Of a DNA stretch of 64,000 bases, positions 1-58,248 are shown in pieces. The stretch comes from Parcubacteria group bacterium Gr01-1014_30 (GTDB lineage: Bacteria > Patescibacteriota > Minisyncoccia > Minisyncoccales > 2-12-FULL-40-12): contig VMFS01000003.1 in NCBI GenBank assembly GCA_007376185.1, forward strand, positions 25,983 through 89,982, read 5' to 3'. Numbering within the stretch: the stretch's first letter is position 1; each line of letters begins with the position of its first letter. Position numbers and translations under genes: made by a program. The notes beneath the pieces were generated by a model. It did not search any database. It had not been told where the DNA came from and worked only from the letters and a program-made list of their open reading frames with translations.

Positions 1-2145
1 TATTTCCCATTTGTTTCGGGCAGGGTTTATCTTTTCAGATTATTGGTGGTTTTGGCTTTTTTCTTCTGGATATGGCATCTGACAAAAGTTACAAGTTACA
101 AGTTACAAGTTACAAGAAGTATACTGGTTGTCGCTTTGATTCTGTTCTTTCTGGCGCAGATTTTGGTTTCTTTTTTTGGGGTTGACCCTCTTTTTTCTTT
201 TTTCTCTTCCATATCAAGGTCTGACGGCGTTTTTCAGTATGGTTTTTGGATTTTATATCTTTTGATGCTGATTTTTGTGTTCAAAGAAGACAAGGACTGG
301 AAAATTCTTTTTTCCGTTTTTACAGTTGTCGCCTTTATTATGTCTCTTTTTGCCTGGCTGGGGTTTCCGCCAGAGCAAGAAATATACGGCAACCTTTTCG
401 GCAACCCAGCTTATTTTTCCGGATTTTTGATCTTTGCCATAGGTTTTTCTTTACTGACTTTCGAGAGGAAGTTTTTCAGTAACCCTCTTTTGAACAATTT
501 ATTTTTGGTCCTGTCTGTCTTTTTTGCCGTTACCTTGGTTTTTACTAAAATTAGGGGAGCTTTTATTGGTCTGGCCGGCGGAATTTTTCTTTTTTGCGCT
601 TTGTCAGCCGTATTTTTAAGAAGGGAGAGAGAAAACAGAAAATTAGCTCTTTTTTGCGGAATTGCTTTATTGGCAGGAGTTGTTTCCCTGCTACTTCTTT
701 TTTCTGCCAGAGAAACAGAGTTTGTTAAAAATAATGTTTATTTATCCCGCGTAGCAAGCATTGCCGAGTTTCGTGCCGCAGATTCTCCCATAGAGCGTTT
801 TTTGGTGTGGAACGTTGCGTTAAAGGCCTTTTTGGAAAAACCTCTGCTGGGCTGGGGTCCTGAAAACTTTGCTTCAGCTTTCAATAAATACTACGACCTG
901 CGAGTAGGCGAGCGAGAAACCTGGTTTGACAGGGCGCACAACGTTCCTCTAGACATTTTGGCAACAGGAGGAGTTTTCCTTTTTGCCTTTTACCTATTTT
1001 GGATTTTCGCCGTCCTTTTTTTGATTCTCAAGATAGCTTCAAAAGTAAAGATTCTGTCTTTTATTTTGGGTTCGGTATTTTTTGCCTATTTTCTGCAAGG
1101 GCTTTTCTTTTTTGACACTTTTGCCAACTCTCTGGGCCTTTTCCCGTTCTTGGCATATCTTGTGTACTTAAATCCGAAATCCGAAACTCTAAATCCTAAA
1201 CAAATTCAAAATTCAAAATTCAAAATTCAAAATTTTATTTTAGTTGTTGCGGCGGTTTTTTCTGCTTTTCTAATTTACGCAACAGTTATAATGCCTTGGA
1301 AAGCCAATGCCGCGGCGCTGAATTTTTACACTCACACCGAGGCAGAGCTCTATAAAGAATCTAAGCCCTTTTTGAAAAAGGCATTTGTCATAAAGTCGCC
1401 CTACACGTATTGGGAAGTGAGAAGAGAGTTGGCTTGGCAGTTCTTGAGAATTTTGGAAGATAGGGTCAAAGAGGGAATGCCGTCTGAAGACCTTCAGGCA
1501 ATAAAGGAAACTTATGATTTAATAACTCCGGAACTTGAAAGGTTTATTATAGCGAAACCACAGGAGCCCCAGATGTATTATGTTTTGGGGAGAATTTATC
1601 TGGCAGGTTTTGAAAAGTTACATAGAGATGACCTTGGCAAGGCAGAGACAATCCTTAAAAAGGCGCTTAACTATTCTGATTTAAGACAGGAATATTTTCA
1701 GGAACTAAAGCGGGCTTTAGTTTTGCAGGGCAAGTTTGACGAAGCCGAAATTTTATTACAAGGATATGTTCAAAGAGTGGATTTTTACGATTACTACCCT
1801 TTCTTGACTATGGGGCATTTTTACTTTGACGTTGAAAGATACCAGCAGGCACAGGAACAGTATGAGAAGGCAAGAGAAGTTGGCTACGATTTTTGCCGAG
1901 TTGGAGCCGAGTACAGTCGTTATATGTTTTCAGCGGAGCAGGCGGGAAATTACCAAAAAGTCGTTGAAATGGGGCAGGAATGTTTGCAAAAAAGGGGACC
2001 TGACGCAGCCACTTACTTTAACGTTGCCGTAGGTTTCTTTCATCTAGGAGAAAAAGAAAAAGCAAGGGAGTTTTTCTTGAAGGCATTTGAACTGGATCCC
2101 AAAGAGTACGAGCAGTATCGTGAAATCTTTGCCCCCACACCATAA
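1..2145 (+). CDS. O-antigen ligase/polymerase-like (Wzy_C-type) polytopic membrane protein with C-terminal TPR domain; 5' partial
   Basis: The frame is open from nt 1, so the TTG at 43 is not the true start. N-terminal YFPFVSGRVYLFRLL aligns to YFFPFVAPKTIFFRLI of the paralog at 48290-50461. Many TM helices. Ligase-type loop WGPENF...FDRAHNVPLDILATGG. C-terminal TPR-like repeats (GHFYFDVERYQQAQEQYEKA, AVGFFHLGEKEKAREFFLKAFELDP). Confidence 0.75.
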   Translation, partial: YFPFVSGRVYLFRLLVVLAFFFWIWHLTKVTSYKLQVTRSILVVALILFFLAQILVSFFGVDPLFSFFSSISRSDGVFQYGFWILYLLMLIFVFKEDKDWKILFSVFTVVAFIMSLFAWLGFPPEQEIYGNLFGNPAYFSGFLIFAIGFSLLTFERKFFSNPLLNNLFLVLSVFFAVTLVFTKIRGAFIGLAGGIFLFCALSAVFLRRERENRKLALFCGIALLAGVVSLLLLFSARETEFVKNNVYLSRVASIAEFRAADSPIERFLVWNVALKAFLEKPLLGWGPENFASAFNKYYDLRVGERETWFDRAHNVPLDILATGGVFLFAFYLFWIFAVLFLILKIASKVKILSFILGSVFFAYFLQGLFFFDTFANSLGLFPFLAYLVYLNPKSETLNPKQIQNSKFKIQNFILVVAAVFSAFLIYATVIMPWKANAAALNFYTHTEAELYKESKPFLKKAFVIKSPYTYWEVRRELAWQFLRILEDRVKEGMPSEDLQAIKETYDLITPELERFIIAKPQEPQMYYVLGRIYLAGFEKLHRDDLGKAETILKKALNYSDLRQEYFQELKRALVLQGKFDEAEILLQGYVQRVDFYDYYPFLTMGHFYFDVERYQQAQEQYEKAREVGYDFCRVGAEYSRYMFSAEQAGNYQKVVEMGQECLQKRGPDAATYFNVAVGFFHLGEKEKAREFFLKAFELDPKEYEQYREIFAPTP
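88..118 (+). repeat. Heptanucleotide tandem repeat (acaagtt x3 perfect plus partial units) inside a CDS
   Basis: Read directly: aaagtt acaagtt acaagtt acaagtt acaagaa. Encodes KVTSYKLQVTRS. Confidence 0.8.
1170..1232 (+). repeat. Array of nine 7-nt units (aaatccg x2, aaactct, aaatcct, aaacaaa, ttcaaaa x4) inside a CDS
   Basis: Read directly. 63 nt = 21 codons, encoding LNPKSETLNPKQIQNSKFKIQNF in a loop between TM helices. Confidence 0.8.
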
Positions 2146-2206
2146 CGAGCAGATACGCCACTAGGGTGGCGTAAACGGCAAAGCCGCTGCTCGTTTGGTG
2201 TGGGGG
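2132..2206 (+). repeat. Long nested hairpin (REP-like, possible terminator) overlapping the stop codon of the upstream gene
   Basis: Arms cccccacaccataacgagcag / ctgctcgtttggtgtggggg. Inner hairpin acgccac-tagg-gtggcgt. Followed by tttgttg. The TAA stop at 2143-2145 lies inside the left arm. Confidence 0.7.
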
Positions 2207-3943: not shown

Positions 3944-3948
3944 CCGTG

Positions 3949-4073
3949 AGGAATCTGGAATCTTGAATTTAGAGTCTTGAACGAGAATACAGCATAAAAG
4001 AATAAAGGATCTTCTTGTATTCTATATTCTAAATTCCAATTCTAGATTCAAGATTCTGTATTCTCCATTCTGG
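3949..4073. repeat. Imperfect palindrome built from 7-nt periodic units (NNNgaat... / attcNNN...)
   Basis: Left arm: gaggaat ctggaat cttgaat ttagagt cttgaac gagaata. Right arm: tattcta tattcta aattcca attctag attcaag attctgt attctcc attctgg. Lies downstream of the 2246-3943 stop, so it is a possible terminator. Confidence 0.7.
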
Positions 4074-4089
4074 CACTATTTGACCCCTC

Positions 4090-4118
4090 TTGACATCATC
4101 TGATGGTTGCTTTATTAT
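4090..4118 (+). promoter_or_regulatory. Sigma70-like promoter TTGACA-17-TATTAT
   Basis: TTGACA at 4090-4095, 17-nt spacer, TATTAT at 4113-4118. aaagg RBS-like and ATG at 4126 follow. Confidence 0.5.
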
Positions 4119-4125
4119 TAAAGGT

Positions 4126-4374
4126 ATGGATGGCATAAACCCAAAAGAGGTCTACACAACCAAAGAAACACAGGATTTTTTGAAGATAAGCTCCTCTACG
4201 ATGAAGAGGATGATAAAAAACGGGATTATCAAGGCCTACAGGGTAGGCGGGACTTATCGCATTTGGGGCTCTGAGATTTTAAAACTTATTTCTCCGGAAG
4301 TTGAAACAAAGGTCTACAGACGGTTTTACAAGCCCATAAAAGAAAAAGTAAGCAAAGTTATTGAAAAATGGTAG
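4126..4374 (+). CDS. Excisionase-family helix-turn-helix DNA-binding protein
   Basis: YTTKETQDFLKISSSTMKRMIKNGIIKAYRVGGTYRIWGSEI matches the HTH_17/excisionase pattern. The start was moved to the ATG at 4126 behind the promoter and RBS. Confidence 0.6.
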   Translation: MDGINPKEVYTTKETQDFLKISSSTMKRMIKNGIIKAYRVGGTYRIWGSEILKLISPEVETKVYRRFYKPIKEKVSKVIEKW

Positions 4375-4832: not shown

Positions 4833-5559
4833 TAATAAAATTGGGATACTAGGTTATGGAGAAGTGGGGCGGGCGATTGCAAAGTTTTATAAAAATCCAA
4901 AAATCAAAGATCTAAATAGAAATGATGATTTGCAGGGAGTTGAGATTTTGCACATATGTATTCCCTGGAGCAAGAGGTTTGTTGAGATTGTTAAAAAAGA
5001 AATCAAAAAAATAAAGCCGCGCCTGACGATAATCCACTCCACGGTTGCGCCGGGGACCACTAAGAAAATCGGTGGCAGGATAGTTCACAGTCCGGTAAGA
5101 GGAGTGCACCCCAACTTATACGAGGGAATCAAGACATTCGTTAAATACATCGGAGCCGACAGCAAGAAAGCAGGTCTTGTGGCAAAGAAACACTTTGAAA
5201 GTTTGGGAATTAAAGCAAAAGTATTCTATCCTTCAGCAACAGCGGAACTTGGAAAGTTACTTGACACAACTTATTACGGCTTGGTTATTGCCTGGTATGG
5301 AGAAATGAAAAAATTGTGCGATAAATACGGCGTTAATTTTGACAACGCCGTAACAGATTTTAATAAAACCTACAACGAAGGGTATGCGAAATTGGGCAGA
5401 AAGAACGTGATAAGGCCAGTTCTTTTTCCGCCAAAAGGCGGAATAAAAGGACATTGTGTTGTGCAAAATACTGAGATCCTCAAAAAATATTTCAATAGCA
5501 AGGCATTAGATTTAATTTTAGAATACAGGCCCAACAAACAACATGGAACAAAAAACTGA
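4816..5559 (+). CDS. NAD(P)-binding Rossmann-fold protein, function unknown
   Basis: N-terminal IGILGYGEVGRAIAKFY (GxGxxG). No further family assignment is possible by eye. Confidence 0.35.
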   Translation: MSKKPNNKIGILGYGEVGRAIAKFYKNPKIKDLNRNDDLQGVEILHICIPWSKRFVEIVKKEIKKIKPRLTIIHSTVAPGTTKKIGGRIVHSPVRGVHPNLYEGIKTFVKYIGADSKKAGLVAKKHFESLGIKAKVFYPSATAELGKLLDTTYYGLVIAWYGEMKKLCDKYGVNFDNAVTDFNKTYNEGYAKLGRKNVIRPVLFPPKGGIKGHCVVQNTEILKKYFNSKALDLILEYRPNKQHGTKN

Positions 5560-6511
5560 AAAAATCCTAGTTACTGGTGCGGGGGGATTCATAGGGCATC
5601 ACCTTGTTCGCTATCTTAAGCGAAAAGGTTATTGGGTAAGAGGAGCGGACATTAAGTATCCCGAGTTTTCTCCGCGCGATGAAGCTGACGAATTTTTGCT
5701 TTTGGACTTGCGGGACTTTCGTAACTGTTTGGAAGCCGTAAAAGGAATGGACAAAGTTTATCAGTTGGCAGCCGACATGGGCGGTATAGGATTTATTACC
5801 AGGGTCAAAGCCGACGTGGTTAGAAACAATATTCTTATCAATACGAATATGGCTGAGGCCTCAATGTTCGCCGGCATCAAAAGGCTGTTTTTCAGCAGTT
5901 CAGCATGCATTTATCCGGCTTATAAGCAGAGAGACCCCAAGGTTGCTCCTTTGAAAGAAAGCGACGCTTATCCTGCCGAGTGCGAAGATGGTTATGGTTG
6001 GGAAAAACTGATTTCAGAAAGAATGTACACTAACTTTTACGAAGACCACGGTTTGGACGTTAGAATAGCTCGTTATCACAATATTTTTGGACCGGAAGGG
6101 ACTTATCAAGGCGGCAGGGAGAAAGCGCCCTCGGCCCTCTCCAGGAAAGTAGCTCAGGCCAAAAATCCCGGAGAAATTGAAATATGGGGAGACGGAAAAC
6201 AGACAAGGTCGTTTTTATATGTTGACGATTGCGTGGAAGGCAGCTGGAGATTAGTGGAATCTGATTTCAGAGAACCTTTAAACATTGGTTCAGACCGACT
6301 TGTGACGATTGACGAGCTCGCCGATATGATAATTAAAACTTCAGGGAAAGGGATTGTTAAAAGGTACAACCTTTCAGCTCCTCAAGGGGTAAGAGGCAGA
6401 AATTCCGATAACACTTTATGCAAGAAAATCCTTGGCTGGGAACCAAAGATTCCGTTGGAAGAGGGGATTGAGAAAACTTATAAATGGGTTGAAAAAGTAG
6501 CATGCCAATAA
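5543..6511 (+). CDS. SDR epimerase, GDP-mannose 3,5-epimerase-like
   Basis: GAGGFIGHHL. SSACIYPAYKQ...LKESDAYPAECEDGYGWEKL...ARYHNIFGPEGTYQGGREKAPSA closely parallels the GME signature SSACIYPEFKQ...AWPAEPQDAYGLEKL...FHNIYGPFGTWKGGREKAPAA. Confidence 0.7.
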   Translation: MEQKTEKILVTGAGGFIGHHLVRYLKRKGYWVRGADIKYPEFSPRDEADEFLLLDLRDFRNCLEAVKGMDKVYQLAADMGGIGFITRVKADVVRNNILINTNMAEASMFAGIKRLFFSSSACIYPAYKQRDPKVAPLKESDAYPAECEDGYGWEKLISERMYTNFYEDHGLDVRIARYHNIFGPEGTYQGGREKAPSALSRKVAQAKNPGEIEIWGDGKQTRSFLYVDDCVEGSWRLVESDFREPLNIGSDRLVTIDELADMIIKTSGKGIVKRYNLSAPQGVRGRNSDNTLCKKILGWEPKIPLEEGIEKTYKWVEKVACQ

Positions 6512-10664: not shown

Positions 10665-11666
10665 ATGAACACAGAAAATAAAAAAGTAGGTTACGGGGTT
10701 GTGGGCTGCGGCAGAATTTTCCCAGCGCATTATGCGGCGATAAAAAAAGACAGAGATAGCCAACTTATTGCGGTATACGATATCAACTCAGACGCAGTAA
10801 GAGCTGTCAAGGAGAAATTCGGAGTAGAAGCAAAAAATAGTTTGCAAGAGCTGCTTTCTGATCCAAGAGTTGATGTGGTTACAGTATGCACTCCTCATCA
10901 CACACACAAAGATGTTATTTTGAAGGTTATTGAAACCGGGAAGTACTGTTTGTGTGAAAAGCCCATTTGTTTGACAACGAAAGAAGGCGAGGAAATTTTG
11001 ACAAGCCCTCACTACAAAGACAATGTGTTCGTATGCTACCAAAATAGGTTCAATCCGGCCGCGCAATTTTTAATGAAATTGCTTAAAAAAGGAATTTTAG
11101 GGCAAGTTAAGCTGTGTTCTGCGTCTTTAAGGTGGTGGAGAGATAACAGTTATTTTCAGGATTGGCATGGCGATGTGGAGAAAGTCGGTGGCATGGGCTT
11201 TAACCAGGGCGCGCATATTTTAGACATTATGAGACAGGTTTGTGGCATGCCTTTGAGAGTTGATAGGTTAGCTAAGCCAATGCGCGAGAATTCCAACGTG
11301 GACGACGTGCTTTTGGCAAATGTTGTTTTTGATTCAGGCTCGTACGGCAACATAGAGCTGACAACTTTCGCGCCCTACAAGGACTGGGAAGTGTCACTTT
11401 TGGTAGCTGGAGAAAAGGGCACGATAAAAATCGGCGGCGTGTCAGTGAATAAAGTTGAGTTTTTGGACGTCAAAGATGAAGAGTTGATGAAAACCTATCC
11501 CCAATATTCAGAAGAAATAGAAACCGGATACGGCAACAGCCACCCGAGAGTTATTTCAGCTTTAACTGAATTTGTCAAAACCGGCAAAAAGCATCCCAGT
11601 TTAGCTGACGCCAGAGATGGCGTTCAAACAACGGAATTCATTGAAAAAATTTATGAAAGACATTAA
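10665..11666 (+). CDS. Gfo/Idh/MocA family oxidoreductase
   Basis: [36 protein letters not shown] (EKP motif). Confidence 0.75.
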
Positions 11667-12579
11667 CCAACAAGATTTAGAAAAAAATATCCCCTTGGTA
11701 ACAAGGAAAGATTACCAAAGAGAGGTAAAAGCAGGACTCGTTGAGTTCGGAAAAGAAAAAATAGTGGTGATAGCCGGCCCCTGCACCATAGAAAGCAAGA
11801 CGCAAGTAATGGAAATTGCCAAAGCCGTGAAAGATGCGGGAGCTAAAATGCTGCGAGGCGGAGCTTTCAAGCCCTTAACTTTTCCTTATGGCGACCCTTT
11901 GGCTCAGCCAGATTCTAACAGCGGTCAGCCATCTGTTGACCGGCTGAAAGTGTTGACTAAAAAAGAGCAAATGGAGTCAGCCGAAAAAAGGTTGTCTTAT
12001 CTGGCTGAAGCCGGAGCAAAGTATGGGTTGCCAGTGGTGGCGGAAATCATTTACGCCGATTCTGTAGCGATGATGGAAAAGTACGTTGATATGTTTCAAG
12101 TAGGATACCGCCATATGTGGAATATGGATTTGATTGACGCTCTTTCAAAGACCAAAAAGCCATTGCTGCTGAAGCGTCATTACGGAGAAAGTTTGAGGTC
12201 GCTATTGGGCGTGGCAGAGCATTATGAGGCGAGAAACAAGCATAATTTTGCTTTTGTGGAAAGGGGCGTGGCGGTTCCTCACACGCACAATCCGCAATCA
12301 AGAGCAGTTATTGACATTCAGGCGATTCCTGCTTTGAAAGAATTCGCGCCTTCAGTTCCCGTGATTGTTGACCCGAGCCACTCAACTTTTAAGCGGATTT
12401 ATGTGAGTTCTGTGGCAAGGGCAGCCATTGCAGCCGGAGCTGACGGGCTTTTGATTGACATACATCCAGAACCCGAAAAGGCATGGGTTGACCCTTTGCA
12501 GGCGCTGGATTTTAAGGCCTTTGAAAAATTGATGACGGAAATTGAGGGGATAGCAAAAGTTTTGGGAAAGACAATATGA
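11653..12579 (+). CDS. Divergent class I-beta DAHP synthase / KDO8P synthase family aldolase
   Basis: [27 protein letters not shown] and [13 protein letters not shown] are conserved. Canonical KPRTSPY is KPLTFPY, and QIGARNMQN is QVGYRHMWN. There is an extra ~40-aa segment after [10 protein letters not shown]. Confidence 0.65.
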
Positions 12580-12590
12580 GTTTGATGGTA

Positions 12591-12778
12591 GCTCGGCGGT
12601 AAAGTTCCCGTTCGCCGTCCCTCAAAAATCGATCGTCAGCGAAGATGAAGAAGAGATTTATCTCTTCTGACTCCCAGCGAGATTTTGGGGTCTGCGCTCT
12701 CGCGCCGCCATTCCGCCCTCAAGCGGAAACCTTGCTGGCGGCGCTCCGAGAGCCGTCCGGAAACTTCACCGCCTCGCT
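12591..12778. mobile_element. MITE-like GC-rich element with ~20-nt imperfect terminal inverted repeats
   Basis: Ends are gctcggcggtaaagttcccg and ccggaaacttcaccgcctcgc (about 16/20 complementary). Central hairpin agaagaga-ttta-tctcttct. Fills the 12580-12784 intergenic gap. Confidence 0.55.
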
Positions 12779-12784
12779 TAAAAT

Positions 12785-13546
12785 ATGCCTAAAGTATCCA
12801 TCATAGTTAGAACAAAGAACGAAGAAAAGTGGATAGGCGAGTGTTTGAGAGCGGTTTTCGGCCAGAAGTTTAAGGGGTTCGCTGAAACTTCGTCTCCTTT
12901 CACTCCCGCAGGGGCGAGAAGAGAACGAAGTTCTCTGCGAGCGCCTCTCTCTGTTTCACAGAGTTCGGCTTTTGAAGTTGTTGTTGTTGATAACGGGAGC
13001 TTTGACAAAACGTTGGATATCGCGAAAAAATTTCCGGTGAAAATCGTTCATCACAAAGGTAAAGCTTGGTTTCCCGGAAGGTCAATTAACGCCGGAATCA
13101 GAAATTCGTCCGGAAAGTACATTGCTTTGCTTTCGGGACACTGCGTTCCTGTAAACAATAGTTGGCTTAGCGATTTAGTGAGGGAAGTAAAAGCTCCAAA
13201 AATTGCTGGAGTCTACGGCAGGCAACTCCCTTTGCCAGAAAGTTCACCCTTGGACAAGCAGGATTTATTGATGTTTTTCGGCAAAGACCCATTAATTCAA
13301 ACAAAAGGACACTTCTTTTATTTTGACAACGCAAATTGCGTTATCAAAAGGTCGGTTTGGGAGAAAATTCCCTTTGACGCAAAAATTAGGCACAAAGAAA
13401 ACATTATTTGGGGCAGAAAAGTTGTTCAAAGAGGATACAAAATTGTTTACACTCCCAAAGCAAAAGTTTATCACTGGCACGGAATAAATCACGCAGGAAA
13501 TATAAAAAGAGCCAAAGAAGTGGTTAAAGTGCTGGAAAAATTATGA
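12785..13546 (+). CDS. Family 2 glycosyltransferase carrying an in-frame palindromic insert
   Basis: VSIIVRTKNEEKWIGECLRAVFGQ...EVVVVDNGSFDKT is a GT2 N-terminus. A 30-aa foreign segment interrupts it. Confidence 0.75.
   Translation: MPKVSIIVRTKNEEKWIGECLRAVFGQKFKGFAETSSPFTPAGARRERSSLRAPLSVSQSSAFEVVVVDNGSFDKTLDIAKKFPVKIVHHKGKAWFPGRSINAGIRNSSGKYIALLSGHCVPVNNSWLSDLVREVKAPKIAGVYGRQLPLPESSPLDKQDLLMFFGKDPLIQTKGHFFYFDNANCVIKRSVWEKIPFDAKIRHKENIIWGRKVVQRGYKIVYTPKAKVYHWHGINHAGNIKRAKEVVKVLEKL
12881..12970 (+). repeat. In-frame GC-rich palindromic module (90 nt, 30 codons)
   Basis: Encodes AETSSPFTPAGARRERSSLRAPLSVSQSSA between KFKGF and EVVVVDNGS. Arms gaaacttcgtctc / gagaacgaagttctc. Hairpin ctctg-tttca-cagag. 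Confidence 0.7.
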
Positions 13547-17670: not shown

Positions 17671-18341
17671 TAAACCTTTTTGATCATCCATTTACAATCA
17701 CTACCTACAATGCCTTTCGGCGAAGATTTTTAATTGGGAAGGCAAAACTGCAGCGTCGAAATTTTGACGATTATATTTTTGGTTTGTGGGCAAAGAACTT
17801 TGGTGTAGCCCTAGATATTAATTGTTTGAAAAGGTTGGATACTATCTTGCAAAAAATGAAACCACGATCGATTTTTGAATTTGGCTCATGAGTTTCCACG
17901 GCAGTGCTTGCAAAGTATGCAGAAAACAACGATTGCACTATTACCGTAGTCGAAGATAGTTCTACTTATTTGGAGATTATGAAAAAAAATATTTCAACAA
18001 AGTATAAAAGTGATCACTTCACTTTTGTTTATGCGCCGAATCACTACAAGGATTATCTGGAAGCGAGTATCAATCCAGGAACGATGGATTTGGTGGTTAT
18101 CGATGGTCCTGATGGAGAAGAACATCGGCTATACAATAAGTTTTTCTATGAAAAGATTATTGGACCTGAAACTACATGCATTATTGATGATACAGACTAT
18201 TCTGCGCTCGATAGACTTGCGGAGGAGATTGCGCGCAGAAATTCGCTAAAGAAAATTGATTTTCGGGATGCGTTTTATAGTAAAGCACATCAATACTCAA
18301 TTCTCTTCCCGCAAACAGCAAACACCAAAGAAATAATATGA
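17667..18341 (+). pseudogene. Class I methyltransferase-like gene interrupted by a single in-frame TGA (17889-17891)
   Basis: ORFs 17667-17891 and 17904-18341 share one frame. The continuous reading is ...RSIFEFGS-TGA-VSTAVLAKYAE...DLVVIDGPDG. The stop sits where a Gly of an E-x-G-x-G-type SAM motif is expected. Confidence 0.5.
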
Positions 18342-19564
18342 AGATCCTTTTCGTGGCCGGAACAAACTTTGAGTTGTATTACCTGAGTTCAGTTGTTTAT
18401 CTTCTGCGATCGTATGACAAGTCGCTTGAGTTTAAGCTGTTTTTGCGCCGCAATTTCGCCAACAATATTACGCCTGAAGTCAGAAGTTTGTATTCAGAAA
18501 TAGAGCTTTTTCAAATTCCTGCTTTAACTCCGCCTCTAACTTGGAATCCCGCAAAGATGCTTTACAATATTTTTGAAAACTTTTACGACTATTTGGTTTA
18601 CAGAAATCAAATGAAAGAAAATCTTTCCAAAGTTGAAATTGCTTGCATATGCGGCATAAAAGAGTTTTTCGCCAACGTGTTGGCAAAACACGCCCCAAAG
18701 AACTTGCGCATAGTTGCTTTAAGGCTCGCCAACCAGCGGCTTGAGGAGACAAAGGAGTTTCGCAAGCGTCCTTTTCTTTCATTTTTATTAAATATTAAAA
18801 ACAGAATTTTTGGATATTCGCCAGTTGAATATAAATGGAGCTTTAAAGGAGGATTAGATCCCTTAACTAAAAACTTCGTCAGCTACCCTTACCATCGCAC
18901 AATATCCATTACCGATCATAACATTGGCAGAGAAGATTCTTTCTTCAGACTGCCGCCGCCATTTGTCGCATTAAAAAAACTATACAAAGGGGGTAGTAGA
19001 AGTTCGGCCGGACTTCGTCCGACTGATTCGCATTCGGCGAATGCCGAACTTTCACTACCCCCCAAACTCCAAGATCAAACTCCTGCCATTTTGCTGGCTG
19101 GCGATAAAACCCCGTTTTATGAAGGATGGGCCGAAAAGGACGAAAAAACATACGAGAGCGTTCTTGATTTTTTGAGAGAAAATTTTCCCAAGCACAAACT
19201 TTACTTCAAACCTAAGATAGGCAGGACAGATCCTTCCAAATACAATTTAGCCGGTTTTGAGCTTTTGTCACCTGACATTTCTTTGGAAGAGATTTGCTTG
19301 AGATATAACATTCAAAAAGTAATTTCCATAAGGTCAACGAGTTCAAAAGTAGGATCTTATTTTGGTATTCCAAGTTATATGCTTTACCCTTTGTTTCCCA
19401 TTCCCGAGCGGTTCAAAGAAGGCATTGAAAATGAGCACTACGATATGCGGTCGGTCGTTAGAGTTTCAAAACTTGAAGATATACTCTTTAAATCCGATAC
19501 ATTCATACAACAATATAACCTTGAAAAATTAGCAGAGCTCTATTGGCAAGCAATAGTTGAGTAA
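18338..19564 (+). CDS. Hypothetical glycan-cluster protein carrying an in-frame palindromic insert
   Basis: Long ORF with ATGA coupling to both neighbours. No recognisable motif by eye. Confidence 0.4.
   Translation: MKILFVAGTNFELYYLSSVVYLLRSYDKSLEFKLFLRRNFANNITPEVRSLYSEIELFQIPALTPPLTWNPAKMLYNIFENFYDYLVYRNQMKENLSKVEIACICGIKEFFANVLAKHAPKNLRIVALRLANQRLEETKEFRKRPFLSFLLNIKNRIFGYSPVEYKWSFKGGLDPLTKNFVSYPYHRTISITDHNIGREDSFFRLPPPFVALKKLYKGGSRSSAGLRPTDSHSANAELSLPPKLQDQTPAILLAGDKTPFYEGWAEKDEKTYESVLDFLRENFPKHKLYFKPKIGRTDPSKYNLAGFELLSPDISLEEICLRYNIQKVISIRSTSSKVGSYFGIPSYMLYPLFPIPERFKEGIENEHYDMRSVVRVSKLEDILFKSDTFIQQYNLEKLAELYWQAIVE
18989..19063 (+). repeat. In-frame GC-rich palindromic module (75 nt, 25 codons)
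   Basis: Outer arms gggggtagtagaagttcggc / gccgaactttcactacccccc (18/20). Inner hairpins cgga-cttcg-tccg and attcgc...gcgaat. Encodes GGSRSSAGLRPTDSHSANAELSLPP. Confidence 0.75.
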
Positions 19565-19570
19565 ATAAAT

Positions 19571-20635
19571 ATGAAAATACTTTATGTTGCGATTAAATAT
19601 GATTACGGGAAGCCAGAAAAAGGTTACTCTTCCCATCATTATAATTTTTACAGCGCTTTGGCAAAAATGGGAGGCGGCGGAAACGATGTCATTTACTTTC
19701 CTTACGACGAAGTGATGCTGAAATTCGGAAGAGAAGAAATGAATAAGAATTTGCTGGATACGGTTTTTCAACAAAAGCCTGATTTAGTTTTCTGTTTAAT
19801 AGGTGATGATGCCATTAGAAAAGAAACAATGGGGGAAATCACCAAAGCTGGCATTACGACCATAAACTGGTGCGCCGACGACCACTGGAAGTTTTACAAC
19901 TACACCAAATACTGGCTGCCTTATTACACCTGGCAGGTGACAACAGACCCCGATATGCTGCCAGAATACGAAAAAGTCGGCTACAAAAACGTTATTTTGA
20001 GCCAGTGGGCTTGCGACCATTTTACTTACAAGCCGCAAAATTTGCCCAAAATTTATGACGTTACTTTTGTGGGAGCGGCTCACGGTACAAGAAAAAAAAT
20101 GGTGGAAAAACTGAAAAAGGCAGGCATTGAAGTTTTATGCTGGGGAGCCGGTTGGCCAAAAGGCAGGGTTTCGCAAGAAGATATGCTAAAGATTTGGGCA
20201 CAAAGCAAAATCAATCTTAACTTTGCCAAGAGTTCAGGAGTTTTGTGGAAAGAGCTTGCTTCAATATTTTTGCGCAGAAGATACGACGATAAAATTGTGC
20301 CTACTAATCCTAAATACTGGTCAGCTAACGCAAAAACCGCTTTTGCCTCCCTTACCAAAAACCAGATTAAAGGGAGAAACTTTGAGGTACCCGGCTGCAA
20401 AACTTTCTTTTTGACAGAATATGTCAGGCATTTAGAAGATTATTATGAGATTGGCAGAGAAATAGAATATTTTAGAAATATTCCAGAACTTATTGAAAAA
20501 ATAAAGTACTATTTGGTTAATGAAAAAGAAAGAGAATTTATCGCTCAGGCAGGTTATGAGAGGACAATAAAAGAGCATACTTTTGAAAAAAGATTTAATG
20601 AAATATTTAAAATTATGGGATTATCAAAACAATGA
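19571..20635 (+). CDS. CgeB-like glycosyltransferase
   Basis: C-terminal FEVPGCKTFFLTEY...IEYFRNIPELIEKIKYYLVNEKEREFIAQAGYERTIKEHTFEKRFNEIF is paralogous in style to 16486-17670. Confidence 0.55.
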   Translation: MKILYVAIKYDYGKPEKGYSSHHYNFYSALAKMGGGGNDVIYFPYDEVMLKFGREEMNKNLLDTVFQQKPDLVFCLIGDDAIRKETMGEITKAGITTINWCADDHWKFYNYTKYWLPYYTWQVTTDPDMLPEYEKVGYKNVILSQWACDHFTYKPQNLPKIYDVTFVGAAHGTRKKMVEKLKKAGIEVLCWGAGWPKGRVSQEDMLKIWAQSKINLNFAKSSGVLWKELASIFLRRRYDDKIVPTNPKYWSANAKTAFASLTKNQIKGRNFEVPGCKTFFLTEYVRHLEDYYEIGREIEYFRNIPELIEKIKYYLVNEKEREFIAQAGYERTIKEHTFEKRFNEIFKIMGLSKQ

Positions 20636-45138: not shown

Positions 45139-46344
45139 ATGGAATACCGCATAAATTTTATAAACAACAGCTACCGCCGGTTTGCAAAGGCGCACAAAGA
45201 AGAGCTGATTTCGGCTTTTTGGGACTGTTTAGAAAGAGGGGCTTTGACCTTAAGAGAGGAGGTTTCTAAGTTTGAAGACAACTTGGCAAACTTTGTGGGC
45301 ACCAAATACGCAATAGGCGTTAACTCGGGCACAGACGCCTTGTTTTTATCTTGCAAGGCATTGGGAATAAAAGGAAACTGGAATTATCTCTTGGAAAGAG
45401 TGTATGCCGGAGAAATCACAATAGATGAGGCCAACAAATTGTTTGAGGGTGACGAACTAATTACGGTATCACACACTTTCATTGCCTCAATACAATGCAT
45501 TGTTAACTGTGGCGCCAAACCGGTGTTGGTTGATGTTGGCGAGAACGAATTGATGAATCCTGAACTCATTGAGCCGGCAATAACCGAGCGGACAAAAGCC
45601 ATTTTGCCAGTGCACTTTCACGGAAAGGTGTGCGATATGGACGCCATTTTGGACATAGCCGCTAAACATAATTTACACATTATTGAGGACGCGGCCCAGG
45701 CACTGGGTTCCTCTTATAAAGGTAAAATGGCAGGCAGTTTTGGAGACGCGGGGTGTTTCAGTTTTAACACGGCAAAGCTTTTGGGCGGTTTTGGCGATGG
45801 AGGAGGTATCGTTACAAACAGTAGAGATTTGTGCGAAAAACTTTATCTTTTGAGAAACCACTGGAATATGGCGCAAACGTCCGTAAGAATGTCCGATTTC
45901 CCCACGCCTGAAATTGTGCAGTGGGCGTGGAAGTCGCGGCTGGATAACGTGCAGGCCGCTTTGCTCAACGTCAAGTTCAAATACTACAGAGACCTTCTGG
46001 TCAGGCGCAAGCAGATTGCGGATATGTATTGCGAAGGATTGAAGGGCTTGCCTTTGAAACTGCCAAAGTATGGGGAAGGCGACGTGATTCAGGAATTTAT
46101 CGTGCGTATAGGAAATGAGGAGGAGCGGGAAAAGTTCAAGAAATTTATGGATGAAAAAGGCATTGAGGTTTTGATTCGCGAAACAACGCCAAATCACAAG
46201 GTGAAAAATTTGTACTTGGACCATTTTTCTTTGCCCGTGACCGAAAGCATTTCCAAGGACGCGGTAAGATTACCTACTTACCCTGAGCTTGAAGACAGCG
46301 AAGTGGATGAGATTATAGGGGCTATTAGAGAGTTCTATAAATAA
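45139..46344 (+). CDS. DegT/DnrJ/EryC1/StrS-family sugar aminotransferase
   Basis: GVNSGTDALFL. IIEDAAQALGS. SFNTAKLLGGFGDGGG (the Lys is present). Carries a ~35-aa insert (GNWNYLLERVYAGEITIDEANKLFEGDE). Confidence 0.8.
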   Translation: MEYRINFINNSYRRFAKAHKEELISAFWDCLERGALTLREEVSKFEDNLANFVGTKYAIGVNSGTDALFLSCKALGIKGNWNYLLERVYAGEITIDEANKLFEGDELITVSHTFIASIQCIVNCGAKPVLVDVGENELMNPELIEPAITERTKAILPVHFHGKVCDMDAILDIAAKHNLHIIEDAAQALGSSYKGKMAGSFGDAGCFSFNTAKLLGGFGDGGGIVTNSRDLCEKLYLLRNHWNMAQTSVRMSDFPTPEIVQWAWKSRLDNVQAALLNVKFKYYRDLLVRRKQIADMYCEGLKGLPLKLPKYGEGDVIQEFIVRIGNEEEREKFKKFMDEKGIEVLIRETTPNHKVKNLYLDHFSLPVTESISKDAVRLPTYPELEDSEVDEIIGAIREFYK

Positions 46345-46417
46345 ACCCCGTAATACAACTTCCAGCACGCTTCGCGTGCAAAATCGCTGAAAGCGACTGG
46401 AAGATGATATACGGGGT
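46345..46417 (+). repeat. Y-shaped structured repeat, copy 1 (candidate ncRNA / REP-like element)
   Basis: accccgta-atacaa-cttccag-[cacgc ttc gcgtg]-caaaa-[tcgct gaa agcga]-ctggaag-atgata-tacggggt. Confidence 0.7.
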
Positions 46418-46425
46418 AAATAAAC

Positions 46426-48309
46426 TTGTTTTCCGTTTCTAAAAAAATTTTCTTTGAAAATAGACCTTTAACAAAGTTGGCGTTTTTTACTTTGGCCGAC
46501 GCGGTCCTACTTGCTTTTTCGGTTCTCTTGGCTTTTTTGGTTAGATTTGAAGGCCAGATTCCACAAAGATATTATTTGAACATTTTGGGCATAATGCTTT
46601 TTGGCTGGGTTATTACTTTGCCTGTTTTTTATTTTTTTCGACTTTACCGTTTTACTTGGCGGTACGTCTCAACCCAGGAGCTGGTTCAGCTCGTTAAGGG
46701 CACAGCTCTCAGCTTTTTGTTGCTGACCGGAGTTTTTTTCGTTTTAAGAGACCTGACAATTTTTTCGGGATTTCCCAGATCAGCCCTTTTTATCACTTAC
46801 TTTTTTGTCTTCGTTTTGACGGGCGGCCTACGTTTTGCCAAGCGGCTTTGGCTGCAGCTTTCTCCTCTTGCTAAAATGGGATCTAAAGAGAGAATCTTGA
46901 TTGCGGGAGCTGGCGACGCAGGAGAGCTGATTTTGAGAAATATTTTAAACACAAAAAATCCCTACCAGGTTATCGGTTTTGTAGACGACTCGCATGCAAG
47001 ACAGGGAGTGTCTATACACGGCGTTGAGGTTTTTGGCAAAATCGCGGATATTCCGCGGATTGTAGTGAAAAAGAATATTGAAGGCTTGATTGTGGCTATG
47101 CCATCGGCCGACTCTAGAGCCATTCAAGAAGCCGTTCAAAAAGCAAGGGAAGCGGGGCTAAAAAAAATTAAGATAATTCCGCCGATTGAAGACGTATTTG
47201 CCGGCAAAGTTACTCTGGCGCAGCTGAGAGAAGTTCAAATGGAAGATTTGCTTTCCAGAGACGTTGTTTTGACCGACAGAAGGCCTATTGCAGAGTTCCT
47301 GAAAAACAAAGTTGTTCTGGTCACGGGAGCTGCCGGTTCCATAGGATCTGAACTATGTCGCCAGATAGCCCTTTTTGTTCCTTCTGCGTTAATTATGTTG
47401 GACCAGGACGAGACGGGTATTTTTAATATCGCAGAGGAACTAAAAGACCGTTTCCCCGACCTGAAAAGAGTCCCGCGGATTTGCGACATTGGCGATGAGG
47501 CAAAAATTGAAAGTATATTCTTGGAGTTTCGCCCTGCCGTTTTGTTTCACGCGGCGGCTTACAAGCACGTTCCTTTAATGGAGGAAAACTCAGACGAAGC
47601 CGTGAAAAACAACGTTTTTGGCACAAGAGTTGTGGCAGAGGCGGCTTTGAGAAACGGCGTGGACACCTTTGTGTACATAAGCACCGACAAAGCCGTAAAT
47701 CCGACGTCGGTGATGGGTGCGACAAAAAGGGTTGGCGAGATGATTTGTCAATCGTTGCAGGGACAAGGTAAAACAAAGTTTGCCTCGGTCAGATTCGGCA
47801 ACGTTTTGGACAGTCGGGGGAGCGTTATACCTGTTTTCCGTGAGAAAATCAAAAAGAGAGAACCGATCCAAGTAACCCATCCTGAAATGAAGCGTTATTT
47901 TATGATGACGTCGGAGGCATGCTTGCTGGTTTTGCAGGCAGGCGCCATGGGCAAAGGGGGTGAGGTTTTCGTTCTGGACATGGGTAATCCCATAAAAATT
48001 TTGGAACTGGCAAAAGAAATGATTAAATTGTCGGGCTTGGAACCCGACCGCGACATACCCATTGTTTTCACTGAGCCAAGACCCGGAGAAAAACTTTTTG
48101 AAGAGATAATGTCGGCTGAAGAGGGGACAATAGCTACTCAAAACCAAAAGATTTTCATAGCAAAACTGTCAGAAATTAACGGAAGTCAGTTAGAGCAAGG
48201 ACTGGAAAATTTAAAAAAAGAGGTATATAATGGCAAAAAAGAAGAGATAATCCAGGTTTTAAAAGAAGTTGTTCATAGTTACAAACCAAATGCCGTTTTC
48301 GCCGACTAA
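46426..48309 (+). CDS. Membrane-anchored nucleotide-sugar 4,6-dehydratase (CapD/PglF/WbpM family)
   Basis: Four N-terminal TM helices. VLVTGAAGSIGSELCRQI. YISTDKAVNPTSVMGATKR. Confidence 0.8.
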   Translation: MFSVSKKIFFENRPLTKLAFFTLADAVLLAFSVLLAFLVRFEGQIPQRYYLNILGIMLFGWVITLPVFYFFRLYRFTWRYVSTQELVQLVKGTALSFLLLTGVFFVLRDLTIFSGFPRSALFITYFFVFVLTGGLRFAKRLWLQLSPLAKMGSKERILIAGAGDAGELILRNILNTKNPYQVIGFVDDSHARQGVSIHGVEVFGKIADIPRIVVKKNIEGLIVAMPSADSRAIQEAVQKAREAGLKKIKIIPPIEDVFAGKVTLAQLREVQMEDLLSRDVVLTDRRPIAEFLKNKVVLVTGAAGSIGSELCRQIALFVPSALIMLDQDETGIFNIAEELKDRFPDLKRVPRICDIGDEAKIESIFLEFRPAVLFHAAAYKHVPLMEENSDEAVKNNVFGTRVVAEAALRNGVDTFVYISTDKAVNPTSVMGATKRVGEMICQSLQGQGKTKFASVRFGNVLDSRGSVIPVFREKIKKREPIQVTHPEMKRYFMMTSEACLLVLQAGAMGKGGEVFVLDMGNPIKILELAKEMIKLSGLEPDRDIPIVFTEPRPGEKLFEEIMSAEEGTIATQNQKIFIAKLSEINGSQLEQGLENLKKEVYNGKKEEIIQVLKEVVHSYKPNAVFAD

Positions 48310-53677: not shown

Positions 53678-53738
53678 GGCAACGAACCCCGCCCTCTAAG
53701 CAGCGAAAATATAAAGCATAGAGGGCGGGGTTGTTGCC
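53678..53738. repeat. Long GC-rich hairpin of the CCCCGCCCT family (no T-tract)
   Basis: ggcaacgaaccccgccctcta-[20-nt loop]-tagagggcggggttgttgcc. Confidence 0.7.
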
Positions 53739-55439: not shown

Positions 55440-55511
55440 ACCCCGTAATACAACTTTCGGCGCGCTAAAGCGCAAAATCGCCGAAGGCGACCGAAAGATG
55501 ATATACGAGGT
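55440..55511 (+). repeat. Y-shaped structured repeat, copy 2
   Basis: accccgta-atacaa-ctttcgg-[gcgc...gcgc]-aaaa-[tcgcc gaa ggcga]-ccgaaag-atgata-tacgaggt. Confidence 0.7.
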
Positions 55512-57592: not shown

Positions 57593-58177
57593 ATGGTTTT
57601 AACCGAGTCGGTTCAAAAATTAAAGAAGGGAGACAAGGCGCCGGATTTTTCTTTGAAAGGCGTTGACGACAAAATATACTCTTTGAAGGACTTTGAAGGC
57701 CTGCCTGCCCCCCTGCGCGGTCAGGCGCAGGCAGGCAAACAAGGCCTTTTGGTTATATTTATGTGTAACCACTGCCCTTACGTGAGAGCGAAACTGCCGG
57801 TCATTGCCGAGCTTTACAAAAAGTGGGGTACTAGGATTTCTTTTTGCGGCATCAACAGCAATGACTCTGGATACGAAGGCGAAGGCATGGACAATATGAA
57901 GGTTTTTGCCAAAGAGAGAGCAATTGCTTTTCCTTACTTGTTTGACACACTTCAAGATGTTGCCAAGGCCTATGGAGCAACTTGTACTCCCGACCCGTTT
58001 TTATTCAATAAAAATTCTGAACTGGTTTTCCACGGACGAATTGACGACGCCACGGGCCCGGGCGAGACGGCCAAAGAGAAGACCATGGACGAGAATATCT
58101 CAAAAATGCTTTCAGGCCAAGAAATTTCTGACGAGTTCAAACCGTCAATGGGATGCTCCATTAAGTGGACCCCGTAA
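57593..58177 (+). CDS. Thioredoxin-fold (redoxin-like) protein with an in-frame insert; its stop codon lies inside a repeat
   Basis: KAPDFSLKGVDDKIYSLKDFEG...LLVIFMCNHCPYV (CxxC). The TAA at 58175-58177 lies within ccccgTAAtac of Y-repeat copy 3. Confidence 0.65.
   Translation: MVLTESVQKLKKGDKAPDFSLKGVDDKIYSLKDFEGLPAPLRGQAQAGKQGLLVIFMCNHCPYVRAKLPVIAELYKKWGTRISFCGINSNDSGYEGEGMDNMKVFAKERAIAFPYLFDTLQDVAKAYGATCTPDPFLFNKNSELVFHGRIDDATGPGETAKEKTMDENISKMLSGQEISDEFKPSMGCSIKWTP
57701..57745 (-). repeat. In-frame palindromic module (45 nt, 15 codons), same family as 56109-56162 but in opposite orientation
   Basis: The reverse complement tgcctgcctgcgcctgaccgcgcag matches tcctgcctgcgcctgaccgcctgtctgcgcag of the other copy. 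Encodes LPAPLRGQAQAGKQG. Confidence 0.7.
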
Positions 58178-58248
58178 TACAACTTTCGGTGTGTTCTTGA
58201 AAAGAACACAATTATCGCCGCAGGCGACCGAAAGATGATATACGGGGT
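58169..58248 (+). repeat. Y-shaped structured repeat, copy 3
   Basis: accccgta-atacaa-ctttcgg-[tgtgttctt gaaa agaacaca]-attat-[tcgcc gca ggcga]-ccgaaag-atgata-tacggggt. It exactly fills the gap between two convergent genes. Confidence 0.7.

Follow-up and report, generated by a model that had tools for sequence, protein, structure and literature searches.

We found that a 74-nt palindromic element had moved into a GT-B-fold gene of a Parcubacteria genome, between TAC-AAA and CTC, and that its 4-bp target CAAA had been doubled there; the insertion was the derived state. The inserted segment was probably a copy of a small, non-autonomous, MITE-like element with GTAG-tagged 20-bp terminal inverted repeats (TIRs), resembling the Rickettsia palindromic elements (RPEs) in function. 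The element belongs to a previously undescribed family of an already known kind of repeat. Positions refer to the window, that is, the whole stretch of 64,000 nucleotides that was analysed, unless another locus is named, and palindromic features are given without strand.

The element and its insertion site

The host gene (18338..19564, + strand) encoded a 408-aa hypothetical protein, named G01um101430_312 by NCBI, in the MAG of Parcubacteria group bacterium Gr01-1014_30. It was part of a glycan-biosynthesis cluster with Glyco_trans_1_2, methyltransferase and sugar-nucleotide genes as neighbours. Pfam gave no match on the host ORF. The AF2 model of the protein (pLDDT 85.5, pTM 0.86) had a GT-B-like fold with two Rossmann domains, and its Foldseek matches in the PDB were UDP-GlcNAc 2-epimerases and GT-B glycosyltransferases (E about 1e-9). 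Since the identical 408-aa protein was present on three contigs and in four sources (NCBI, ENA, Logan and nr), an assembly artefact was ruled out.

The element was located at 18989..19062 and represented a complete Y-shaped unit of the group that we called family 1 (covariance model R1, 79.6 bits, E 7e-16). Its left TIR (GGGGGTAGTAGAAGTTCGGC, 18989..19008) had GTAG straight after a G-run and was paired with the right TIR (GCCGAACTTTCACTACCCCC, 19043..19062; reverse complement GGGGGTAGTGAAAGTTCGGC). The initial annotation had described a nested hairpin with arms complementary at 18 of 20 positions around two smaller hairpins, and its sequence, coordinates and layout were all confirmed. Namely, the 20-nt terminal arms were 90% complementary, making the palindrome imperfect, and the outer stem surrounded hairpin A (CGGAC-TTC-GTCCG, 19009..19021) and hairpin B (ATTCGC-ATTCG-GCGAAT, 19026..19042). 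The arm had two matches in the window vs 0.01 expected by chance. The RNA fold reached a minimum free energy of -46.2 kcal/mol (z = -7.9), which none of 200 shuffles equalled, and the DNA fold reached -27 kcal/mol (z -7.3 and -8.2 for the two strands). The GC content was 58% in the element vs 39% in the interval 18001-20000, in line with its earlier description as a GC-rich unit in an AT-rich gene. Each half could also fold on itself as a near-palindrome (GAAGTTCGG/CCGGACTTC).

Comparison with homologs revealed the state of the gene before the insertion. All 23 homologs in alignment A1 (34-74% identity to the host protein) lacked the segment, leaving a 26-column gap flanked by conserved blocks. 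In the closest of them (L026), the empty site read TAC AAA CCG GAT GAC GAA ACT CCT with a single CAAA, and the filled site read TAC AAA (74 nt + CAAA) CTC CAA GAT CAA ACT CCT. The left copy of the target-site duplication (18985..18988, + strand) was part of the codons TAC AAA and corresponded to the single CAAA of the empty site; the right copy (19063..19066, + strand) was identified by comparison with that site. The inserted material therefore consisted of the 74-nt element and one CAAA, giving 78 nt or 26 codons, rather than the 75 nt and exactly 25 codons proposed at first. With these 78 nt taken out, the gene was exactly colinear with the empty L026 site, and an insert-free allele of the host gene would join TACAAA directly to CTCCAAGAT. 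Thus, the homologs and the empty site supported the earlier view of an in-frame structured insertion into a hypothetical glycan-cluster gene.

The element was in frame within the ORF 18338..19564 and its conceptual translation was GGSRSSAGLRPTDSHSANAELSLPP. There was no stop codon in the 78 nt in the host frame, and the ORF 3' of the insert was still open and conserved. In the AF2 model, pLDDT fell below 50 nowhere but in the insert (residues 219-242), which was placed between helix 210-218 and strand 246-254, in the linker joining the two Rossmann-like domains. The model suggested that the insertion was tolerated by the host protein as a disordered segment. The host gene presumably stayed functional, with the element read as a 26-residue disordered surface loop (KGGSRSSAGLRPTDSHSANAELSLPP), and the insert would persist because it did little harm to the protein.

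It was also considered that the native protein might be made in spite of the element, through programmed translational bypassing or through excision of the element from the transcript. Because of the duplication, the putative take-off codon and the landing codon would both be AAA (TAC AAA before the element, C AAA CTC after it), a very stable hairpin followed immediately behind the first AAA, and loss of exactly 78 nt would restore the ancestral frame. Bypassing has precedents in T4 gene 60 and in yeast mitochondria, whose 'byp' hairpins are GC-rich and mobile. However, the host frame was open through the element and had no stop behind the putative take-off codon, so bypassing was unnecessary; the usual bypass signals were also absent. 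Moreover, the clear intragenic copies were all in frame (a multiple of 3) and stop-free, a filter that fits read-through and not bypass, and neither a bulge-helix-bulge motif nor a ribozyme match was found in the element. We considered bypass or excision extremely improbable.

Copies and sister families

Family-1 termini (GGGGGTAGTRRAAGTTCGG; the ends are written as GGGGGTAGT.../ACCCNGTA...) were found at unrelated loci of other Parcubacteria genomes and metagenomes, and each copy had its own 3-5-bp duplication. A Ca. Nealsonbacteria MAG carried two copies (L006 and L008) with the same or nearly the same 19-20-nt termini. Family-1 termini were also present on low-GC metagenome contigs (L009, L012, L013/14/19 and L024) and in L025, and the genome represented by L013 and L019 had at least three copies belonging to families 1 and 1b. 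Covariance model R1 scored 83-101 bits on other family-1 copies and 42 bits on the arms-only copy in L006. The copies were 38-88 nt long, with one nested composite of 196 nt, and were thus too short to encode a transposase.

Target duplication was a general property of these insertions. A flanking direct repeat of at least 4 nt was present at 14 of 15 independent insertions (families 1, 1b, 2 and 3) vs 11.7% of random placements (binomial P about 1e-12). The duplicated sequences varied by copy (CAAA, (C)TTG, AAA(G), CTAAG, TTTG(G), CAAG(G), TGTAA, TAAA and others). Their length was variable as well, 3-5 bp and apparently up to 6-8 bp in family 2, and terminal G/C runs blurred the element boundaries in the duplication calls.

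Some of the copies were associated with other protein-coding genes. An O-antigen-ligase-like protein (P0030, 771 aa, Wzy_C and TPR domains) carried WGVVKVRLNSVQISSSSANLPNFYYPL in frame, and its ortholog in the source genome was without the element. A decayed element in this Wzy ortholog was ruled out, the DNA being an (AAGTTAC)x4.4 tandem repeat. In a PBP2 gene (P0031), the element was located at the 5' end, immediately after the annotated start. A concatenated element-peptide query returned three Parcubacteria-type proteins after scoring of 8000 candidates that shared most words. The extended GGS-frame profile gave no match at E <= 10 because its ~25 positions were too few to be significant against 5.8 billion sequences. 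The copies were stop-free in 4 of 6 frames, with P about 0.1-0.2 per copy vs palindrome-preserving shuffles. Since stop-freeness was significant neither against these nor against free shuffles, there was no evidence that the element had been adapted for translation. In so compact a genome, where genes leave hardly any space between them, the in-frame, stop-free intragenic copies would rather be those that purifying selection had spared.

A number of matches were set aside. Single-arm matches at loci of high or mid GC (L002-L005, L007, L011, L017, L018 and L020-L023) were coding, had no partner arm and were attributed to chance, and a single arm in a coding-looking region of a 41% GC contig (L010) was taken as chance or a remnant. 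Viral contigs contained no copies with family 1 or family 2 arms; the 12 viral matches to the family 1b pattern came from one conserved phage coding region, lacked a partner arm and were likewise ascribed to chance.

The source genome itself contained further elements of this kind. Within the ~81 kb examined, there were at least seven further Y-shaped elements (one of family 1b and six of sister families), all at gene ends or intergenic, and only one copy had family-1 termini. This corresponded to a density of about 8 per ~81 kb, or roughly one per 10 kb. The family 1b element (L028 4676-4754), on the same contig and 14 kb upstream of the focal one, had an arm sharing the GGTAGTGAA...TCTACTACC core; arms of this sister subfamily read CCNGGTAGT... 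A related arm thus did exist elsewhere in the genome, where the initial annotation had suggested searching, in addition to the arms in other Parcubacteria.

A family 3 element with the Y architecture (2132..2206, arms CCCCCACACCA.AACGAGCAG, TTTG/TTTG flanks) included the stop codon of the gene 43..2145. The family 2 element at 46345..46417 (arms ACCCCGTAATACAACTTCCAG..., flanking repeat TAAA(TAAA)) occupied the gap between the genes 45139..46344 and 46426..48309. Two other family 2 elements were located between divergent genes (55440..55511, flanking repeat TCAATA on the - strand and TATTGA on the + strand) and between convergent genes (58169..58248, flanking repeat TGGA). In the latter, CCGTAA of the element provided the TAA stop (58175-58177) of the gene 57593..58177. 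Thus, the window did contain other nested-hairpin modules, as had been claimed, but their arms differed and they did not have the proposed GAAGTTCG/CGAACTT motif in common. This motif had five exact matches in the window vs 2.3 expected, a number reached by 7 of 100 shuffles, and no other match was inside another palindromic element. It was not enriched and was therefore rejected as a link between modules.

Families 1/1b, 2 and 3 were unrelated in sequence and had a common Y-shaped architecture and size. Taken together, the copies were found in either orientation, and their gene contexts were coding, 5', 3', convergent and divergent.

The fold was maintained across the copies. In the outer stem, 15 of 19 pairs were invariant. 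Both-side pair changes were observed six times vs 1.4 in shuffles (0 of 500 reached six), and 94.8% of the cells across copies were paired vs 34-48% when the partners were slid. Both internal hairpins were preserved through compensatory changes among copies: in hairpin A, 3 of 5 pairs were changed on both sides, hairpin B covaried as well, and even the orthologous copies L024 and L025 showed a compensatory pair difference in hairpin A.

Such changes could point to an RNA or DNA structure under selection, for example a stabiliser, an RNase III or other processing site, an attenuator or terminator, or a small RNA, that was spread by regulatory recruitment. The single Y-shape and size of three sequence-unrelated families and the position of many copies right at the end of a gene, as would suit a terminator or stabiliser, were in line with this possibility. 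However, DNA palindromes can covary through templated repair in hairpins without any selection on RNA, which makes the covariation ambiguous. The focal copy was placed midway through a coding sequence, and a terminator at such a site would do harm; the variety of orientations and gene contexts also argued against a regulatory role, as did the lack of a T-run 3' of the stems in the sequence of the copies. Rfam 15 gave no matches at the gathering threshold in the whole window, and at a permissive E-value the best match at the locus was CncR1, below threshold (18.6 bits, threshold 76); the best E-value was 0.047. No tRNA or tmRNA genes were found in the search. Finally, the target duplications indicated transposition. 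Selection for function as the cause of the spread was therefore rated very improbable.

Mobilisation and relation to known repeats

The MITE-like reading was based on conserved TIRs, copy-specific duplications and a size without capacity for a transposase. Mobilisation would occur in trans through a putative DDE-type transposase making staggered cuts, which would recognise the hairpin fold, the conserved ends, or both. No transposase was found in the 26 window ORFs scanned (66 ORFs of at least 120 aa were listed), in the contig-flank genes or in the 10 ORFs beside other copies. In pattern scans, there was no longer element bounded by family-1 termini, and no autonomous IS sharing these ends was found in the limited search space (window ORFs, flanks and neighbours of the copies). 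Orphan status is common among accepted MITEs. For comparison, Tn3-family ends have GGGG termini and 5-bp duplications.

The element could instead be a REP doublet (a REPIN, or head-head GTAG-REP dimer), that is, a single-stranded DNA hairpin whose mover would be a RAYT-type HUH tyrosine transposase instead of a DDE enzyme. In families 1 and 1b, both arms read GGGG-GTAG-T..., with GTAG just inside the terminal G-run, and each half was near-palindromic and self-folding. Moreover, GAA/TTC loops closed by C-G were frequent, and we take this closure to be the d(cGAAg) motif, a DNA mini-hairpin of very high stability. In published GTAG-REP dimers, GTAG is outside, the spacers contain small stem-loops, the whole forms one long hairpin that is sometimes wholly intragenic, and a TAG stop is often donated to the flanking ORF (PMC3733652). 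The present element had the same dimer-like layout, with GTAG by the outer ends of a long imperfect hairpin and stem-loops in the spacer. It was occasionally intragenic, existed in several families per genome, and gave TAG stops to neighbouring ORFs; in the L025 copy, TAG of the element was the stop of the upstream ORF 758-1066.

The duplications set the element apart from such doublets, since 14 of 15 insertions had site-specific ones. To our knowledge, single-strand transposition of the HUH/IS200-IS605 type makes no target duplication. The survey of GTAG-REPs does not mention duplications (0 occurrences; PMC3733652). In addition, a G/C run was located outside GTAG here, and GTAG was absent in families 2 and 3 despite the common architecture. 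Neither a RAYT nor a Y1-transposase domain was detected in the genes that were called or scanned on ~81 kb of this genome or beside the other copies. Hence, we considered a REP doublet improbable.

RPEs are palindromic elements of about 100-150 bp from alphaproteobacteria with a conserved peptide per family (Ogata et al. 2000, summarised in PMC10969869). Similar to them, the element described here was a hairpin-forming selfish repeat that coexisted with several other families in a small reduced genome, and a sizeable fraction of its copies, as of the RPEs, were inserted in frame into unrelated protein genes in a fold-compatible manner (the host protein and P0030). By description it differed in its 74-nt size, unrelated sequence and Parcubacteria host, in its clear 20-bp TIRs and 3-5-bp duplications, and in showing no statistical sign of adaptation to translation. 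Judged by this comparison, the Parcubacteria element is not a member of an RPE family, and the resemblance is in what the element appears to do.

Bacterial MITEs such as the Neisseria Correia elements, ERIC, RUP and cyanobacterial MITEs are likewise short and non-coding, have TIRs, duplications and folded transcripts, and sometimes form in-frame fusions with host ORFs (PMC10969869). They are multi-copy, as the present element probably is within its genome. In comparison to them, the present elements (74-88 nt) ranked among the smallest, and their interior was a conserved pair of mini-hairpins and not an IS remnant; no parental IS was found. MITEs in CPR or Parcubacteria were not described in the literature searched.

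Genomes of CPR/Patescibacteria are about 1 Mb, gene-dense and generally held to be poor in mobile DNA. If confirmed, our findings would mean that at least one Parcubacteria lineage has several families of tiny palindromes that are, or until recently were, active. These would settle at gene ends and now and then within a gene, which they leave unbroken. The elements could then serve as a marker of strain-level variation in surface-glycan and cell-wall genes (the GT-B enzyme, the O-antigen-ligase-like protein and PBP2). Annotators would be warned that such elements may be the origin of lineage-specific disordered loops and of odd start or stop codons in CPR proteins. The combination of a REP-type GTAG tag with MITE-type duplications would also bear on the relationship between REPs and MITEs.

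A broader and doubtful extension is that the Y-shaped palindromes would form a CPR-wide mobile superfamily that is defined by structure, is moved by structure-recognising machinery and not by a recognisable IS transposase, and regularly supplies the proteins of ultra-small genomes with new loops, new stop codons and altered N- and C-termini. Members would be about 75 nt long, with two mini-hairpins that have GAA/TTC loops, a long stem with imperfect pairing, and a duplication of 4 bp at sites similar to CAAR/TAAA. The superfamily would then have arisen independently of the Rickettsia RPEs and converged on their behaviour, with REP-like tags and MITE-like integration.

A further parallel exists outside bacteria. 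In yeast mitochondria, mobile palindromic clusters rich in GC and 'byp' elements have spread through a compact, AT-rich genome; they also invade coding sequence and have short flanking duplications. All of these features were shared by the GC-rich hairpins described here. The 'byp' elements differ in being organellar and in interrupting the frame, so that ribosomes bypass them, whereas the frame of the Parcubacteria element was open and read-through was the simpler expectation.

An in-frame palindromic insertion in a GT-B gene

The focal segment (window 18989-19063) read GGGGGTAGTAGAAGTTCGGC CGGACTTCGTCCG ACTG ATTCGCATTCGGCGAAT GCCGAACTTTCACTACCCCC(C), with arms of 20 nt each that were 90% complementary, and was open in the frame of the ORF 18338..19564 (408 aa). 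The initial annotation had described a GC-rich nested hairpin of 75 nt (25 codons) inserted in frame. Folding recovered this structure: the RNA fold of 18980-19072 (93 nt) had an MFE of -46.2 kcal/mol (z = -7.9), none of 200 shuffles folded as well, and the MFE structure made up 71% of the ensemble. With DNA parameters, the element adopted the same Y shape on either strand (z -7.3 and -8.2). The GC content was indeed high, 58% vs 39% for 18001-20000, and the arms matched just two sites in the 64 kb searched, vs 0.01 expected (up to 3 mismatches).

The host protein was an NCBI entry present on three contigs (sources NCBI, ENA, Logan and nr). Its homolog search found 28 sequences, and 23 of them were aligned (identity within the alignment, 34-74%). 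None of the 23 had the segment, as the comparison with orthologs proposed at the outset revealed, and a 26-column gap separated two well-conserved blocks. The empty site in the DNA of the closest homolog (locus L026) was ...TAC AAA CCG GAT GAC GAA ACT CCT..., and the filled site in the window was ...TAC AAA [GGGGG...CCCCC CAAA] CTC CAA GAT CAA ACT CCT.... Exact colinearity with L026 was regained once the 74-nt palindrome and one CAAA were taken out, so a 74-nt element had inserted here and duplicated its 4-bp target, CAAA (18985-88 and 19063-66). Thus, the in-frame insertion stood, and its size was corrected from 75 to 78 nt.

The host ORF had no Pfam match, and its neighbours were Glyco_trans_1_2, methyltransferase and sugar-nucleotide genes. 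In the AlphaFold2 model built from the homolog alignment (pLDDT 85.5, pTM 0.86), residues 219-242, corresponding to the insert, were the sole segment with pLDDT below 50 and lay between helix 210-218 and strand 246-254. Foldseek placed the protein in the GT-B fold, together with UDP-GlcNAc 2-epimerases and GT-B glycosyltransferases (E ~1e-9). From this fold and its position in the model, the insert is predicted to lengthen the linker joining the two Rossmann-like domains.

Copies, target duplications and conserved structure of family 1

When one genome per species was scanned for GGGGTAGTRRAAGTTCGGC, two real copies were found, both in one Ca. Nealsonbacteria MAG, and a metagenome scan found copies with paired arms in low-GC contigs; both scans used an exact pattern of one arm variant, so these copy numbers were lower bounds. 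Five single-arm matches in other genomes, mostly of high GC, had no paired arm and were rejected as chance. Locus L025 was reached via a peptide search. The copies at L009, at L013 = L014 = L019, and at L024 and L025 were 77 nt long, contained two small internal hairpins, A and B, and were flanked by the repeats CTAAG, TTTG(G) and CAAG(G), respectively. The L008 copy (86 nt, AAA(G)) had a second hairpin of different sequence, an unrelated 12-bp one in the position of hairpin B. The L006 copy (38 nt, (C)TTG) consisted of the arms alone and appeared internally deleted between ACTT repeats. At L012 (2408-2605, 198 nt, (C/T)AAG), family 1 arms surrounded two tandem 66-nt units of the sister family 1b type (CCCGGTAGTAGAAATTGGAC...GTCCAATTTTCACTACCGGG), with part of an arm (GGGGTAGT) immediately outside the left end; this nested composite shows element-into-element insertion or duplication.

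All family 1 copies had common termini, and the flanking direct repeat differed at every locus. Together with the sister families, 14 of 15 independent insertions had a flanking repeat of at least 4 nt, vs 11.7% of random placements in the same loci (P ~1e-12). The duplicated target sites were A/T-rich, commonly CAAR/YTTG or TAAA.

In the alignment of element copies, 94.8% of pairing cells were paired, vs 34-48% with the partners slid, and six pairs were changed on both sides, vs 1.4 in shuffles (0/500 reached six). All six were in the inner hairpins, and the outer stem was almost invariant. In a common orientation, hairpin A (5 bp) occurred as TGAAC-TCC-GTTCA, TGGGC-GGA-GCCCA, TGGAC-TAC-GTCCA and CGGAC-TTC-GTCCG, and hairpin B (6-7 bp) as GTTCGCC-GAA-GGCGAAC and ATTCGC-ATTCG-GCGAAT; between the orthologous L024 and L025 copies, one pair of hairpin A had changed from A-T to G-C, a compensatory substitution. 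Every copy had GTAGTGAAAG as one arm and, read as the reverse complement, GTAGTAGAAG as its partner, so that a mid-stem mismatch and a wobble were conserved. Compared with the other copies, the window copy had its interior in the opposite orientation with respect to the arms, which recombination between the inverted repeats is expected to produce. For a DNA palindrome, covariation is no proof of RNA function and may reflect the needs of a mobilising enzyme or hairpin-templated repair.

Additionally, a 61-nt hairpin lay directly 3' of rpsI (window 53678-53738). Its core, CCCCGCCCT...AGGGCGGGG, matched the second of the two hairpins inside the L008 copy, suggesting exchange or nesting of hairpin modules between elements.

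Sister families, gene ends and coding regions

A family 1 covariance model and a family-agnostic scan for nested hairpins identified sister families in the same genome, at a density of ~8 elements in the ~81 kb examined. Their elements were 72-80 nt long, adopted a common three-way junction (z -7 to -10) and were located at gene ends or in intergenic gaps; several included or adjoined the stop codon with which the upstream gene ended. The Y-shaped family 2 elements (72-80 nt; arms ACCCCGTAATACAACTTYC.../...GATGATATACGGGGT, also given as ACCCCGTAATACAAC... / ...GATGATATACGGGGT) were found at window 46345-46417, 55440-55511 and 58169-58248 and, in the upstream flank of the contig (7.7 kb), at L028 5522-5593. 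All four were intergenic, occupied entire gaps and were bordered by direct repeats of 4-8 nt; the gene 57593..58177 took its TAA stop from the copy at 58169. Family 3 (CCCCCACACC...GGTGTGGGGG) had a full copy at window 2132-2206, with TTTG/TTTG flanks, within which the Wzy_C/TPR gene 43..2145 had its stop codon, and a mini version of arms alone (L028 ~2860-2900) at the end of a large LTD-domain gene. Family 1b was represented at L028 4676-4754 (ACCAGGTAGTGAATTTTGGAC...GTCCAAAATCTACTACCTGGT, duplication TGTAA) by a copy sharing the core GGTAGTGAA/TCTACTACC with the focal element; in relatives it occurred at L019 1496-1570, L013 5711-5789 and in the L012 inner units. At one shared position in two syntenic genomes, directly after the stop of the DUF5667 gene, the relative carried 1b (the L019 copy) and the source genome carried family 2 (the L028 copy). 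Gene ends appear to be recurrent landing sites.

Within coding regions, the L013/L014 copy was in frame in P0030, an O-antigen-ligase Wzy_C + TPR membrane protein (771 aa as called), and encoded WGVVKVRLNSVQISSSSANLPNFYYPL; the source genome's ortholog (57% identical) had no element at that position. In a PBP2 gene (P0031), the L024/L025 copy began in frame, 8 codons past the annotated ATG, and the upstream ORF took its TAG stop from the GTAG of this copy. PBP2 might in reality start further downstream, at Met-73, leaving the coding status of this copy ambiguous. Other family 1 copies were spanned by short open frames alone and were taken as intergenic. Most copies were stop-free in 4/6 frames, which was not significant vs palindrome-preserving shuffles (P ~0.1-0.2); accordingly, we treated in-frame survival as a selection filter rather than an adaptation of the element.

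Two GC-rich palindromes within ORFs, at window 56101-56160 and 57686-57749, belonged to a fourth kind, CCTGCCTGCGCCTG...CAGGCGCAGGCAGG. This kind had five matches (up to 2 mismatches) vs 0.19 expected, and the three exact ones were located in these two palindromes. They were read in frame as LPAPDRLSAQAGAGRQ in a GSDH-like gene and as LPAPLRGQAQAG, between FEG and KQG, in an AhpC/redoxin-like gene. The best two PDB alignments of the redoxin-like protein started at residue 46 or later, skipping the N-terminal part and the palindrome-encoded residues; the third started from residue 13, with the query 9 residues longer. Both palindromes look like additional in-frame insertions.

Mobilisation, known systems and nearby repeats

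The target duplications point to integration by staggered cuts (DDE-type). No transposase or HUH domain was matched by Pfam in the 26 window ORFs scanned (66 ORFs of at least 120 aa were listed), among genes called on both contig flanks or in 10 ORFs adjoining other copies, and no pattern scan of genomes, viral contigs or metagenomes contained a long element bounded by family arms. By anatomy, the focal family can be counted as an orphan MITE of very small size. Duplications are not expected from REP/RAYT mobility, and on that feature the family falls outside the REP/RAYT elements. On the other hand, its GTAG tag and dimer-like layout resembled GTAG-REP head-head dimers/REPINs, some of which lie inside genes or provide ORFs with TAG stops (PMC3733652). 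By effect, the nearest were Rickettsia palindromic elements, selfish palindromes tolerated in frame within reduced-genome genes (PMC10969869). Since full-text literature searches returned no description of such elements in CPR/Parcubacteria and Rfam had no matching family, we classed them as a new family within a known type, in which a REP-like tag is unusually paired with MITE-like integration.

Other repeats were present nearby. The Wzy_C/TPR gene contained perfect 7-nt tandem arrays (AAGTTAC x4.4 and AAATTCA x4.7, window 86-116 and 1202-1234), as did a murB-like gene (AAGATTC x5.0, 52424-52458). These in-ORF arrays could be phase-variation sites, because slippage by a 7-nt period would shift the frame. 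A degenerate TATTCTA array (4018-4064) lay in the intergenic gap 3944-4367, which also formed an inverted repeat with 52-nt arms (3951-4063). The gap between 11617..12579 and 12785..13546 was occupied by a 103-nt GC-rich long hairpin (12676-12778, MFE -49 kcal/mol), unrelated in sequence to the other families. Finally, the homologous glycan cluster of a relative (L027) was interspersed with two short ORFs that have GIY-YIG domains (85 and 76 aa; 2654-2911 and 5350-5580). The matching part of the window lacked both, and they may be homing-endonuclease-like insertions.
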